Shown piece by piece: positions 17,691-22,280 of a stretch of 23,442 bases of DNA; position 1 is the stretch's first letter, and each line of letters opens with the position of its first letter. The notes beneath the pieces are model-generated. The model did no database searches. It was not told where the DNA came from and saw nothing but the letters and a program-made list of their open reading frames with translations. Where the stretch lies: the IMG/VR virus record IMGVR_UViG_2648501361_000004, one strand, 5' to 3'. The stretch comes from a virus (taxonomy: Duplodnaviria; Heunggongvirae; Uroviricota; Caudoviricetes). A program made the position numbers and the translations under genes.

Positions 17691-19849
17691 TGGCTAAAGC
17701 ATGGAAAGATGTTATCGCTTCTCCACAGTATCAGGCGTTAACTGAAGAACAGAAAGCACAGGCTCAAGCGCAATATTTTGATGAGGTTGTTGCCCCTAAG
17801 GCTGGTGACAAATGGGCTGAAGCAAGAGATCAGTTTTATGCAGCATACCCTCCGCCTCAGCAGCAGAAAGAAGAACCATCATTGATGCAACAAGCTGGTG
17901 ATTGGCTCACAGGTGGTCAAAGTGCAGGGCAAATTGCAGAACAGGCTGGTCGTGGTCTGGTAAACATACCATTTGACGTATTGCAGGGTGGCGCAAGTCT
18001 GATTAATGCAATCAGCCAGGGGCTTGGCGGCCCCAAGGTTTTGGATGATGTTTATCGCCCTGCCGAGCGACCGACAGACCCTTACGCGCAAGCCGGTGAA
18101 ACAATTGGTGGGTATCTCCTGCCAATTGGCACAGCGGCAAAAGCTGCTGGAGCGACAGCAAAGCTCGCTGGAGATATCGGTTCCGCCGGAAACATGATTG
18201 CAGGTTCTCTTGCTGATGCTGCAAATCAGGAGGGCGACTTTGCACAAAATGCTGCCATTAACGGTGGTATCAATATTGGTGCTCAAGGCGTTCTTTCAGG
18301 TGTCGGGCGCGTTATTGCGCCAAGGGTTTCACAGGCTCTTGGTGGTGCAGCACTGAATTCTGCTAATGATGTTTCTAGGATGGCAAAGTCAGGTGCTGGG
18401 CGTCAGTCAATTGCCAGTCAGGCCGCTAATGTGTCCGAAGATGTAGCAAAAGCGGCTGAGTCTGCTGGAATTGATATAAACGCATTAACACCAGGAATGC
18501 GATCTGGAAGTCGTGGAATTGCACAAGCCGAAGGCGCATTGGCATCAACACCAGGAATTGTTCAGGACGCCCATCAGGCAGCATTTAACGAAATATCATC
18601 AAAGTTAAGTCGAAACCTTGATGAATTTGGGGCCGCATCTGGAACGGCATCAGAAAAAAGTGCGGCTATAAAACAAAGGATTCTTCAAAATCTTGATCAG
18701 ATGAAGGATGCCGAGCGCGCGGCATGGGATGACGTGCGGTCAACAATGCCAAATCAAAAAGCAAGAATGCTAAATGGTAATGCCGTTATTCAGGCAGAGC
18801 GATCTGCCGGCATACCGCTTACTCCTGAAATGAAACAGTTTGTTCAGGCAAACAATCAAGGTGGAGTAACATTTGACGGCATGAAAGCATGGAGAGCGAA
18901 ATTTGCTGATGCGGAGCAAAAATATAAGCGTAGCGGAGAGGCAAATGCGGCAAGGAGAGCAGGGGAAATACGCCGGGCAATTACTGATGATATGCGCACA
19001 ATGGCGGAAAACGGCGGATTTCTTGATGACTGGCAAAAAGCTAATGATCTGTCTAAAGCGAGGTTATCAGCACAAGAGAGTGCAGAGTCTGTTTTCGGGC
19101 GTGATTTGGCAACAGATGCACTGATTACGAATGGAGTAAAATCCCTTCAATCATCGTCAGCTAAAGGTCTTAATGGTCCTGCTGGATTCCATTCTATGAT
19201 CCGCGCGCTGCCAGAATCAGAGCGTGTTCCTGCTATATCATCAATGTTGCAAGATGCTATCTCGCATGGTGTACGTGGTGGTAAAGCTGATGCAGCAGGA
19301 ATTAACCATATCGCAGAGATACTCACTCCACAAAATGTAAAAGCCATTAGCCGATATTCCTCAGAGCTTGGAAGAATTGCAGATGCATATGGCACTCTTG
19401 CAAGAGCAGCAGTGAAACCTCAGCAGTATATTGAAAGAACAGGGAGAACTGCCAATGTACTACGCGATCTGGATGCCGGTTTATCCAACGTCACATCAAC
19501 AGTGTTAAATGCAATTGCCAATTCAACATCAGGTGCCATTGTTGGTGGAGCAGGAGGGGGCATTGCAGGCGCTGCCGCAGGTGCTTTAGTTGGCGCCGGG
19601 CTAAAAGGTGCTGTATCTAAAATTGCCACCACACGTAGTGGTCGGTATGCGATAGAGAAAGCAGTTCAGGAAGCCACGAAAGCAGTAAGAGCTGGCGGAA
19701 GTAAAGAAGCATTAGCGGCGGCGGAACGCAGATTTATGGCAAATAAAGCCGCCGTAAAAGCAATACGCGATGCAGTTGGAAACGAAGAGTTCAATCGCTT
19801 AGCGAGGGCTGGCATTGTAGCGTCGCTAAGCGGAATGGCACAGGAGTAA
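17690..19849 (+). CDS. Ejection protein (P22 gp16-like)
   Basis: 719 aa, Ala/Gly-rich with hydrophobic glycine-zipper-like stretches ([26 protein letters not shown]). Last late structural gene before the accessory island. Confidence 0.8.
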
Positions 19850-20173
19850 TTAATCATCCATGGATGTATTGAGCTTATCTCGTGTTGATGTGGCGATTTG
19901 TCCTACATTCCTAAGCCAAGATTTCAAATCCTTGATATTGTCATTGATTTCATGAATATCTTCTTTTTTTAATCTGTTAATATTATTCTCAATAATTTCA
20001 ATGGATTGCTCAATATCAGATATAGTGAATGATAGTTTGTTCTTCTCATCTTTTATTGAGTTTTTAAGTGCTTCGTTCTCAGTCTTGAGGTCAGATATCT
20101 TTTGTTTTAAAGATGCCAGTTGGTACTGAACCACAATGAGTGCGATAGCTATCGCGATAACTGTTGTATACAC
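19850..20173 (-). CDS. Small single-pass membrane protein with coiled-coil tail (unknown function)
   Basis: 107 aa from a GTG start with strong RBS (AAGGGGG). N-terminal hydrophobic helix YTTVIAIAIALIVVQY followed by heptad-like K/E/L-rich sequence. Last gene of an AT-rich minus-strand cassette. Confidence 0.6.
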   Translation of the reverse strand: MYTTVIAIAIALIVVQYQLASLKQKISDLKTENEALKNSIKDEKNKLSFTISDIEQSIEIIENNINRLKKEDIHEINDNIKDLKSWLRNVGQIATSTRDKLNTSMDD

Positions 20174-20195
20174 ACCAACCCCCTTAGTTGATATT

Positions 20196-20615
20196 TTATT
20201 TGTATGAAATCAACGAGTTAAGCTCCCTCTCATTTAGAGATTGGAATCTTTTTTCAGTTATATCAATGATGGCTGGCAATAGTTTTTTTACCTTCTCATG
20301 ACCATCAGGTTTAATGATAGCAATGATCTGGATATGAATTGGATATGTGTTGTGTACCGCAAATATCAAAAAGTTATCGCTAACTCTACGATGTATTGGC
20401 GTTGTTCTTAACCAAGGATCATCTACTCCAGGGATCCTGATGTGCGACTTGTAAATTCCCGATAAGACGGCGTGATGGTTTCTCTCAAACCCACCAATCT
20501 TACCAAGATAAGCTGAAACGGTGCCTCTGTTTTTGTAGTTTGCAAGAGCCTTCGCAAAGTATTGTTCTAATGGTCCAGCCGCTGCATCTACAACAATGCT
20601 TATGCGGTTTTCCAT
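20196..20615 (-). CDS. YafO-toxin-like protein (candidate type II toxin / mRNA interferase); family assignment tentative
   Basis: 139 aa; the C-terminal core VSDNFLIFAVHNTYPIHIQIIAIIKPDGHEK resembles, as recalled, the conserved YafO-family core (SD..LVY...LLIAIL.P..H). ATG start lies 16 nt upstream of the preceding gene's stop (coupling). Confidence 0.55.
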   Translation of the reverse strand: MENRISIVVDAAAGPLEQYFAKALANYKNRGTVSAYLGKIGGFERNHHAVLSGIYKSHIRIPGVDDPWLRTTPIHRRVSDNFLIFAVHNTYPIHIQIIAIIKPDGHEKVKKLLPAIIDITEKRFQSLNERELNSLISYK

Positions 20616-21181
20616 TTTGGTGCTTCCATGCCAAATCTTTTATGTGAATCTTCAACTGATTTCTTGAAGGAAGCCAACTCTTCTTCAGTGAACTCTTCAG
20701 GTTCAGCATATGATAGTGGTATGTGCTGCATTGCTAGCGTCACAAGCCCCATTGTTAGCCTTTTGTATTCTATAAAAGTATTGATTGAGTGGTTTTTCAT
20801 TGTTGTAAGAGTTGACATATGGGGCTTCCACGCATCGCTGTTCTCAGCGATGAAGAAGGTATACAACAGTTTCGCGATACCATAATCAAGCTTAGATATC
20901 TGATCGTTCAACATATCTACATCGTCATGTTGAATATTAAGTGAGGAAATATCTTCTTCTGTACCATTACTTAATATGTCAATGAATGTAATGTACTTTT
21001 TGCAAACTTCCTCTACAGGTGACATAACGCAGTAGATCTTGCTAAGAGCTTCAGAAGCCTGTTTTTTAGACAAAGAGCCGCTATGACTGCGATCAAAGTC
21101 TGAAATTGAACGCTCGATAGATGTTGATATGTCAGAAAAAACGTTTTCAATTTTTCCTGGCTCTTGATTCAGGATGGCCAT
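20600..21181 (-). CDS. Hypothetical protein, first gene of the accessory cassette (candidate partner/antitoxin of the YafO-like gene)
   Basis: ORF open 20600..21199 (GTG). ATG at 21181 with upstream AGG is preferred (~193 aa). Predicted helical, acidic protein with no recognised domain. AT-rich codon usage unlike the structural genes. Confidence 0.6.
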   Translation of the reverse strand: MAILNQEPGKIENVFSDISTSIERSISDFDRSHSGSLSKKQASEALSKIYCVMSPVEEVCKKYITFIDILSNGTEEDISSLNIQHDDVDMLNDQISKLDYGIAKLLYTFFIAENSDAWKPHMSTLTTMKNHSINTFIEYKRLTMGLVTLAMQHIPLSYAEPEEFTEEELASFKKSVEDSHKRFGMEAPKWKTA

Positions 21182-21241
21182 AACGCCTATCTCAATCACA
21201 ATGTATACCTTGTTATTTTATATCAACGAACAAACATTGAC

Positions 21242-21490
21242 CTATCTGGTCTCGTACATTTTTTTCAGGGTTTCAAACACCATCTTCTTAACAATTTCTG
21301 CTTGCTGATCAGCCATACGTTCTGCTTCGTCACGGTAACCTGCAATCGGTGATGGTTTTGATAGCGCATCCTGAACGATTTGTAATAACTCAGAGTTCAT
21401 TGACCTTCCGTTAGCCTCGGCTCTTAATTTCAATTTTTCTCTTACTTCCAAAGGCATACGGAAGTTAAAGTGCGGATCATCTCTAGCCAT
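21242..21490 (-). CDS. mnt: Mnt repressor (ribbon-helix-helix)
   Basis: 82 aa, MARDDPHFNFRMPLEVREKLKLRAEANGRSMNSELLQIVQDALSKPSP..., near-identical to P22 Mnt as recalled. Confidence 0.9.
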   Translation of the reverse strand: MARDDPHFNFRMPLEVREKLKLRAEANGRSMNSELLQIVQDALSKPSPIAGYRDEAERMADQQAEIVKKMVFETLKKMYETR

Positions 21491-21513: not shown

Positions 21514-21777
21514 CTAACTTTCGTCTTTATTGTTGCCATACATGCATTTCAACTTCTCAACATCATGTTCAAGATCTATCAATCGTGATGCTATAGTTGC
21601 AAGGTCTAGTGCTTGAATGTGTTTATTTTTTTCGGTCCATGCTTCAAGTGCAGCGACCATCTCAGCATTTAATGAACGAGAATTAGCCTCAGCCAGTTCA
21701 ATAAGACGTTCCTTTATCTCTACAGGAAGCCTCAGATTCACTTGAGGGTTTTTGTACTTACGATCAGACATCGGCAC
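21514..21777 (-). CDS. Second Mnt/Arc-like ribbon-helix-helix repressor with C-terminal extension
   Basis: 87 aa; PQVNLRLPVEIKERLIELAEANSRSLNAEMV is the Arc/Mnt RHH signature. Reads divergently from arc, directly upstream of mnt. Confidence 0.8.
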   Translation of the reverse strand: MPMSDRKYKNPQVNLRLPVEIKERLIELAEANSRSLNAEMVAALEAWTEKNKHIQALDLATIASRLIDLEHDVEKLKCMYGNNKDES

Positions 21778-21799: not shown

Positions 21800-21857
21800 A
21801 GGATATGTAGGTGTCTATTGACTATCAATGCGTACCTAAATACTATGTATGCGTACC
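21800..21857. promoter_or_regulatory. Divergent back-to-back promoters with candidate operators (immI control region)
   Basis: Plus strand: -35 TTGACT 21818-21823, 17-nt spacer, -10 TACTAT 21841-21846 (Pant-like). Minus strand: -35 TTGATA (complement of 21823-21828), 17-nt spacer, -10 TATCCT (complement of 21800-21805). Direct repeat ATGCGTACC at 21828-21836 and 21849-21857 (21-bp spacing) and a palindrome GTATG-N7-CATAC overlap the promoter. Confidence 0.45.
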
Positions 21858-21876
21858 ACATACAGCGGAGGATGCA

Positions 21877-22017
21877 ATGAAGGTAAAAACACTGCGTATG
21901 CCAGAGAAGTTAGAAAAAATCCTTGAAGAGAAAGCAAAGGAAGAGTGTCGATCGTTTAGCGCAGAAGTAATTAAACGGGTGCTGGACAGCTTGAAGAGAG
22001 AGGGGGTGATGGTATGA
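21877..22017 (+). CDS. arc: Arc repressor (ribbon-helix-helix)
   Basis: 46 aa from ATG 21877 with GGAGGA RBS: MKVKTLRMPEKLEKILEEKAKEECRSFSAEVIKRVLDSLKREGVMV, parallel to P22 Arc (RSVNSEIYQRVMESFKKEG). The track ORF 21811..22017 is an upstream extension. Confidence 0.8.
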   Translation: MKVKTLRMPEKLEKILEEKAKEECRSFSAEVIKRVLDSLKREGVMV

Positions 22018-22217
22018 GTAAAGAATGTTGTTTCTGCGGCATTAGCGAATCAGACGCTGATCAAACATACATTTACTCTAAAGAAACAGGTCGGATGCTG
22101 TGTAGTGACTGCGTGTTGGACATCATAAGATACAAGCATCTTGGATGTTCTGCCAGCATTAGCAATATAGGTGAAGTATACGAAGGGAAAGATATAACTG
22201 ATAGAGCAGAAAGTTGA
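22014..22217 (+). CDS. Small Cys-rich (zinc-ribbon-like) protein between arc and ant
   Basis: 67 aa with CCFCG...CSDC...C. ATG overlaps the arc stop (ATGA), suggesting translational coupling. No homologue recognised. Confidence 0.55.
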   Translation: MSKECCFCGISESDADQTYIYSKETGRMLCSDCVLDIIRYKHLGCSASISNIGEVYEGKDITDRAES

Positions 22218-22280
22218 AGCCCCAACTGCGGGAACAGTCAGGGCTTCGGTATCGTAAAACCACGCATAGGAATTAACGAC

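Follow-up and report, generated by a model that had tools for sequence, protein, structure and literature searches.

A YafO-family toxin homologue and a rare partner protein as a candidate toxin-antitoxin-like gene pair beside an independent hkcB gene in a CUS-3-type prophage

Three minus-strand genes lie tightly packed between the last ejection-protein gene, gene 16, and the immI region of the IMG/VR virus record IMGVR_UViG_2648501361_000004, a stretch of DNA of 23,442 nucleotides that was analysed as a whole and is called the window below. A preliminary description of this locus (19850-21241), made from the letters of the sequence, had taken the three genes for a single exclusion or abortive-infection cassette made of a toxin-like core, a large partner and a membrane protein. 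The locus thus raises the question of whether the three genes belong to one system and, if not, what the separate parts are likely to do. The distribution of the genes demonstrates that the segment is two independent morons, namely a pair of genes designated ORF-A and ORF-B (A and B for short), and a separate gene, ORF-C, which is hkcB. The pair itself is probably a translationally coupled type II toxin-antitoxin (TA)-like operon with a new antitoxin family, and its function would be abortive infection and/or prophage stabilisation.

At 100% identity, the 1.7-kb segment matches both coliphage CUS-3 (CP000711.1) and the CUS-3-type prophages of E. coli UTI89, NU14, IHE3034 and APEC O18, among others. 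ORF-A (20600-21199; phrog_18235), ORF-B (20196-20615; 139 aa; phrog_1651) and hkcB (19850-20173; 107 aa; phrog_5962) are all encoded on the minus strand; ORF-A and ORF-B overlap by 16 nt (20600-20615), the start codon of ORF-B falling within the final codons of ORF-A, and 22 nt separate the stop codon of ORF-B from the start of hkcB. Because each of the three ORFs has protein homologues of 50-80% identity in other genera, they are real genes and not chance reading frames. The layout set out in the preliminary description is therefore sound with respect to the ORFs, the overlap, the gap and the strong ribosome-binding site (RBS) of the third gene. Its placement of the genes at the sieA-equivalent position is equally correct, as the corresponding interval of P22, from gene 16 to mnt, contains mnt and orf59a as well as a terminator and a sieA gene that has a promoter of its own. 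The region was further described as AT-rich relative to the flanking structural genes and as a horizontally acquired moron. Indeed, the GC content is 33% in hkcB, 39.5% in ORF-B and 38.5% in ORF-A, compared with 48.7% in gene 16 and 48.1% in the window, and the segment is the P22-type 'ant moron', which the 2008 epsilon34 paper reported to be changing rapidly, sixteen genomes representing ten types. One detail has to be amended: the first gene is real, but instead of the ~193 aa given for it, which start at an internal ATG, a length of 199 aa from the GTG at 21199 is preferred, because the homologues in Salmonella, Pectobacterium and Xenorhabdus have an ATG where CUS-3 has the GTG, with the same AAGG spacing (8 nt). 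The first six residues of ORF-A are conserved among the homologues.

In CUS-3, no predicted terminator interrupts the three genes, which share a strand and are closely spaced, and in 42 of 44 A-B-bearing E. coli genomes an hkcB of at least 99% identity is present as well. These features are what speaks for a three-component exclusion or abortive-infection system in which the membrane protein would act as sensor or effector. The A-B pair was found in 44 of 5,426 complete E. coli genomes, however, and since all of these copies are at least 99% identical they represent one lineage, so that the 42 of 44 describe one clonal prophage. Outside this lineage the genes part company. Four P22-like contigs of IMG/VR with mnt-A-B at 99% carry an HK620-type hkcB that is 51% identical to the CUS-3 allele, two others (L026 and L027; A-B at 99%) have an unrelated 140-aa gene in the hkcB slot, and hkcB is missing from two P22-like prophages of greater divergence (A 67%, B 77-78%). 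Likewise, hkcB is absent wherever A-B was found in Pectobacterium, Xenorhabdus, lambdoid and other phage settings, where the pair stands by itself. Conversely, an hkcB-like sequence is present in 155 of the 5,426 complete E. coli genomes, and HK620, epsilon34, SEN22 and at least 111 E. coli genomes have hkcB but lack A-B. Furthermore, a 98.8% homology to epsilon34 ends at about position 20189 of the window, just upstream of the hkcB RBS, which implies a mosaic junction between ORF-B and hkcB, and the two modules differ in GC content (33% in hkcB against 39% in A-B). These data indicate that A-B and hkcB are separate morons and essentially refute the three-component model, which we regard as highly improbable. 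Tight packing in one phage should thus not be annotated as a functional unit in the fast-changing 'ant moron'.

The A-B pair, on the other hand, is inherited as a unit. A layout with the partner upstream and the two genes co-directional and overlapping or coupled holds in 13 loci, and in all contexts read, the ORF-A relatives of the YafO type (subgroup 1) are followed directly by a YafO gene (by Pfam or PGAP), with an overlap or a spacing of at most 5 nt. The order mnt-A-B is kept in all P22-like loci with the pair, including CUS-3/UTI89 and a Salmonella prophage. In lambdoid prophages, one of which resides on an IncFIB plasmid, A-B lies directly 3' of a cI-like S24 repressor, and in the Flyfo siphovirus and a 41.7-kb phage-like "plasmid" it sits within the tail-gene cluster. 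In several Pectobacterium species, the pair forms a stand-alone island that occupies one and the same chromosomal position, with an ABC-transporter operon on one side and gcvP on the other; a Xenorhabdus chromosome has an island between slt and an ABC-F gene, and A-B was present in two further loci. The E. coli carriers of the CUS-3-type prophage include UTI89, RS218-type K1 strains and APEC O18. A scan of 72,556 plasmid records gave no hit for A and three hits for B, of which the two inspected were phage-derived. In a comparison of 13 pairs, pairwise identity in A was correlated with that in B (r = 0.98; Mantel 0/5000), and A evolves faster than B, with a mean identity of 28% versus 46%. In most loci, the ATG of B overlaps the W196 codon of A and the Shine-Dalgarno (SD) sequence of B lies inside the G-M-E codons of A, implying translational coupling; W196 is constrained at the protein level as well, because it is conserved where the A/B overlap is absent. 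Two loci showed peculiarities of their own. At L020 (1243-1479), the YafO gene is truncated (78 aa) beside an intact A gene, a case of toxin erosion with the partner retained, and in the lambdoid prophage L017 (3507-4001), the ~490 nt from the cI-like repressor to A-B contain several short, uncalled ORF-like stretches of hydrophobic character.

The middle gene had been called YafO-toxin-like on first reading, and profile searches agree: ORF-B matches the Pfam family YafO_toxin (PF13957) with 43.6 bits (gathering threshold 25; E 3e-11), residues 26-122 aligning to positions 2-98 of the 101 in the profile, and the RefSeq PGAP name of the protein is "type II toxin-antitoxin system YafO family toxin". 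In an alignment of 11 sequences that includes E. coli YafO, nine positions are invariant and kept in ORF-B (G38, H58, R77, D80, L83, P103, H106, E121 and F124); ORF-B thus retains all residues invariant with the characterised E. coli YafO, among them two His, an Arg, an Asp and a Glu. Judged by its sequence, ORF-B is a member of a distant YafO subfamily and not an orthologue of E. coli YafO.

ORF-A was described at the outset as a large partner of no recognised family, and this still holds, as searches of Pfam and NCBIfam, of the Protein Data Bank (PDB) by sequence and of structural libraries by fold returned no match. A Pfam search of 17 members of the A family likewise gave no match for any of them, and A showed no similarity to YafN. 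The family is rare; when 1.84 billion representative proteins were searched exhaustively with a profile, only 18 relatives were recovered, nearly all of 187-218 aa apart from a few fragments, and a scan of genome contigs with A recovered Pectobacterium only. Residues A118, W124 and H127 (AExxxxWxPH) and P194-x-W196 are conserved family-wide, and IERSISDFDRSH (residues 28-39) is also invariant in the closer subgroup. The AlphaFold2 (AF2) model of A is an all-helical bundle (pLDDT 79.7, pTM 0.66) with no significant match in the PDB or BFVD and with a weak, generic structural resemblance to FlgN-type chaperones and MukF.

A second subgroup of the A family keeps the N-terminal motif and the core but has a different C-terminus (PxWVxSGxDFVxW), and its genes are always followed by a gene for a ~125-aa protein of phrog_5954 (L009 2065-2457, L033 801-1172, L035 1034-1411 and L022 881-1123). 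This second partner has the invariant elements LPGRNK and HYH and the motif LPGRNKPSTGVS...HYHxG; it matched no Pfam family and was not detectably related to YafO, and it is a candidate new toxin family. An alignment by eye of His motifs had made the 130-aa partner of the distant A homologue in L009 appear to be a YafO protein, but profile-profile comparison gave a probability of 0.1-0.2% and the protein belongs to phrog_5954 instead. Because the C-terminus of A changes with the downstream partner, we infer that the C-terminal segment may be the part that binds and neutralises the partner.

Upstream of ORF-A, the spacer from mnt (21200-21241, minus strand) contains an extended -10-like element, TGATATAAA, at 21225-21217 and an SD sequence, AAGG, at 21211-21208, 8 nt ahead of the GTG, and may thus hold a promoter of the pair's own with a very short leader. 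A -10-like element (TATAAA, TATAAT or TAGAAT) followed by AAGG is conserved in position 5' of A in the Salmonella, UViG, Xenorhabdus and Pectobacterium loci and in L009 (TGCTATAAT), the extended form (TGnTATAAA/T) being found in the P22-like loci and L009. The gene directly upstream, mnt (21242-21490, minus strand), lies outside the pair and gives the context for expression in the lysogen; its 82-aa product has an Arc domain (Pfam Arc, E 1e-27) and the Mnt C-terminal domain (Repressor_Mnt, E 2.5e-15). No terminator was predicted between mnt and A. Given the positional conservation of the -10-like element, the lack of enrichment of its motif in the window (see below) and the absence of a predicted mnt-A terminator, the expression of A-B may be driven by a promoter of its own, by Pmnt or by the two together. 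A near-palindrome, ACAAGGTATACATTGT (15-nt arm; 14/16), covers the RBS and GTG of A at 21194-21217 and was considered as an operator; it is not conserved in the homologous loci and is probably a chance or CUS-3-specific feature.

Taken together, the pair consists of adjacent, co-directional small genes that overlap, with the partner upstream, and that are inherited as a unit, as is characteristic of type II TA operons; an antitoxin of a recognised family (Phd/YefM in the case of yafNO) with a DNA-binding domain was not found. In the proposed mechanism, B would be, by homology, a ribosome-dependent mRNA endonuclease that shuts down translation, and A would be its cognate neutralising partner, the conserved core and the partner-specific C-terminal tail together holding B inactive. 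The pair would be transcribed in lysogens from its slots 3' of mnt in P22-like phages and 3' of cI-like repressors in lambdoid prophages, possibly with the help of its own -10-like element. If A were lost or titrated, for example when an infecting phage shuts off host gene expression or when the element itself is lost, B would be freed and would arrest translation, which could protect by abortive infection and/or stabilise the prophage. This role is favoured by the placement of the pair behind lysogeny repressors in four phage architectures and by its near absence from plasmids.

A number of observations weigh against this interpretation. The score of ORF-B against the NCBIfam YafO equivalog PRK09885 was 13.9 bits and did not reach the cut-off of 153, and BLASTP against E. 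coli YafO gave a marginal match of 11 residues (E 0.027); in view of both results, the biochemical activity of ORF-B may differ from that of YafO. The AF2 model of B, built from an alignment of 8 sequences, had a pLDDT of 40 and was unusable for a fold search. Moreover, Pfam and fold searches revealed no recognisable DNA-binding or known antitoxin domain in A, and a well-folded protein of ~200 aa is atypical for a labile type II antitoxin. None of the defence models of PADLOC-DB v2 matched: B had no hit, and the hits of A and hkcB were coiled-coil noise (E of at least 9e-4, below 17 bits). This result also agrees with the statement in the preliminary description that the combination of genes corresponds to no described system. 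The stably inherited chromosomal copies in Pectobacterium show that the pair is not phage-specific. Lastly, the window is not enriched in the extended -10 motif (4 found versus 1.6 expected; 8 of 100 shuffles reach 4), and only the positional conservation of the -10-like element upstream of A counts as evidence.

The distance of B from E. coli YafO and the lack of a usable B structure could also be accommodated if the pair were not a TA system at all, with B a diverged, non-toxic protein of the YafO fold, or A a chaperone, an activator or an unrelated co-transcribed moron, and the linkage reflecting some other joint function. The absence of known antitoxin or DNA-binding signatures from A, its stable-looking helical bundle and its weak, generic resemblance to FlgN-type chaperones and MukF point in the same direction. 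However, B keeps all the residues that are invariant with YafO, including the two His, the Arg, the Asp and the Glu, and the partner-upstream order, the overlap and coupling, the faster evolution of A, and the swap of the A C-terminus that matches the swap of partner are hallmarks of type II TA systems, which makes this alternative improbable.

Another alternative concerns the role of a genuine TA pair. Stabilisation is the classical role of type II TA systems on mobile elements, and A-B could be a selfish module that stabilises a prophage or an island by post-segregational killing (addiction) and has no anti-phage function; the stand-alone pair at the same site in several Pectobacterium species, the pair in Xenorhabdus and the lack of a PADLOC match are all consistent with this. 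Nevertheless, the pair is found repeatedly 3' of lysogeny repressors (mnt and cI-like) in moron slots of four phage architectures, slots that are typical for prophage defence genes such as rexAB and sieA, and it is nearly absent from plasmids (0 A and 3 B in 72,556), where addiction modules are usually common. Purely selfish stabilisation is therefore possible but rather unlikely as the whole explanation, and it is not mutually exclusive with a role in defence. At the other end, A could be a modular sensor-antitoxin of an abortive-infection system, composed of an N-terminal module (ERSISDFDRSH) that would perceive a phage cue, a helical core, and a swappable tail that would cage either a YafO RNase or a phrog_5954-type effector. 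This more elaborate model must be considered doubtful; if true, it would amount to a new antitoxin/sensor family that different temperate phages have plugged in behind their lysogeny repressors. The reading of A-B as a TA-like operon, with abortive infection and/or prophage stabilisation as its function, is thus the one that we prefer.

Among known systems, yafN-yafO in the dinB operon of E. coli is the nearest to A-B so understood, as its toxin belongs to PF13957 and shares the family-invariant positions, and its two genes are co-directional and tightly coupled with the partner upstream. In contrast to that operon, A is not like YafN or Phd, being all-helical and of double the size, B falls far below the YafO equivalog cut-off (13.9 versus 153 bits), and A-B resides in prophage morons and small islands rather than in the SOS-regulated dinB operon. 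The position of the pair directly 3' of mnt or cI-like S24 repressors, in slots expected to be transcribed in lysogens, resembles that of rexAB in lambda, but A-B has no homology to RexAB, and for A-B, expression in the lysogen and defence are predictions. Promiscuous antitoxin scaffolds of the PanA/DUF4065 type reportedly swap toxin partners. The A family is comparable in that it is associated with two unrelated small partners (YafO and the 125-aa phrog_5954 type) and changes its C-terminus with the partner; it differs in having no sequence or Pfam relation to PanA/DUF4065, only two types of partner and a family of 18 representatives.

YafO is among the least understood type II toxins; reviews up to 2020 give no structure, and none was found in a search of the PDB. 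In the survey by Leplae et al. 2011, YafO (n = 25) was paired only with Phd or with unvalidated partners, and none was on a phage (PMC3141249). Later papers noted "orphan" YafO genes in Pectobacterium prophages (PMC6192338) and, within a tailocin cluster of Pseudomonas, a gene similar to YafO, in both cases with no partner identified. A literature search, which included CUS-3 together with YafO as well as the protein accessions, found no paper on the A-B pair. The family assignment of B (RefSeq) and hkcB were already known, whereas it is new here that a phage-associated YafO subfamily has its cognate partner in the A family, that the C-terminus of A is modular and that the pair recurs behind repressors. 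What emerges is a phage-borne YafO subfamily strictly coupled to a rare, well-folded new partner family that swaps its C-terminus with the toxin partner, which explains the "orphan" toxins of the Pectobacterium prophages (PMC6192338). For CUS-3-type prophages of extraintestinal pathogenic E. coli, A-B is a concrete defence or stabilisation candidate.

The remaining gene of the segment, hkcB, was named in 2001. ORF-C is the same gene as gene 14 of epsilon34 and hkcB of HK620, in the same position and orientation and with no substantive difference, and its product is 97% identical in amino acid sequence to epsilon34 gp14, 92.5% to the SEN22 homologue and 55% to HK620 HkcB. The function of hkcB is not known in these phages (PMC2629481). 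The 107-aa protein has one hydrophobic segment (residues 4-22) followed by a charged, heptad-patterned coiled-coil region, as anticipated in the early annotation of a single-pass (bitopic) membrane coiled-coil protein; library matches were weak and of the architecture type only, to Rz-like spanins and FtsL/DivIC. The signals of the gene (20179-20221, minus strand) comprise the SD sequence AAGGGGG at 20185-20179, 5 nt ahead of the GTG start, and a promoter-like element, TTAACT-17-TAAAAT (20221-20193), within the 3' end of ORF-B, which with 9 of 12 positions is a weak consensus match only. Gene 16 (plus strand) and hkcB (minus strand) are convergent, their stop codons lying 0 nt apart at 19849/19850, and no terminator was predicted there. 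hkcB always abuts gene 16, and the same junction, also present at L003, L004, L031 and L032, has been kept unchanged in HK620, epsilon34, SEN22 and other prophages, although the hkcB and gene 16 alleles assort independently. In HK620, epsilon34, SEN22 and other E. coli prophages, cargo other than A-B lies between hkcB and mnt, and the 140-aa gene that occupies the hkcB slot in L026 and L027 (3443-3865, plus strand), for which no PHROG match was found, is another uncharacterised cargo of this hotspot.

The closest positional counterpart of hkcB is P22 sieA, since both genes directly adjoin gene 16, with which they are convergent, in the 'ant moron' segment that lies between genes 16 and 9, and both encode membrane proteins. 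SieA is a multi-pass inner-membrane protein of 164 aa with the conserved cytoplasmic motif FxRYPxEAxxFNK, and CUS-3 has no sieA of its own and is subject to exclusion by P22 SieA (PMC10883804). Unlike SieA, HkcB (107 aa) combines one hydrophobic segment with a coiled coil and does not contain this motif, and BLASTP of HkcB against P22 SieA (type A only) gave nothing significant. Because hkcB is fixed beside gene 16 at the sieA-equivalent position, a role at the envelope, such as the exclusion of DNA entry, is a reasonable guess from position.

On the other side of the pair, the immI region showed further features. Two repressor genes of the Mnt/Arc type stand in tandem (21242-21490 and 21514-21777, minus strand), the first encoding the 82-aa protein with the Mnt C-terminal domain and the second an Arc-like protein of 87 aa that is ~32% identical to it; related P22-like loci with A-B have only the first of the two. 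The immI region itself looks complete, with an Arc-like ORF at 21811-22017 on the plus strand (Pfam Arc, E 7.5e-8; a 46-aa Arc in PGAP) and the sar antisense RNA at 22212-22279 on the minus strand (84.6 bits in Rfam). The 2008 epsilon34 paper had described CUS-3 as apparently without arc. In the same Rfam search, sar was the only RNA element, and none was found in the three-gene segment. Between arc and ant there is a Cys-rich ORF of 67 aa (CxxC...CxxC) at 22014-22217 on the plus strand, which overlaps the arc stop codon.

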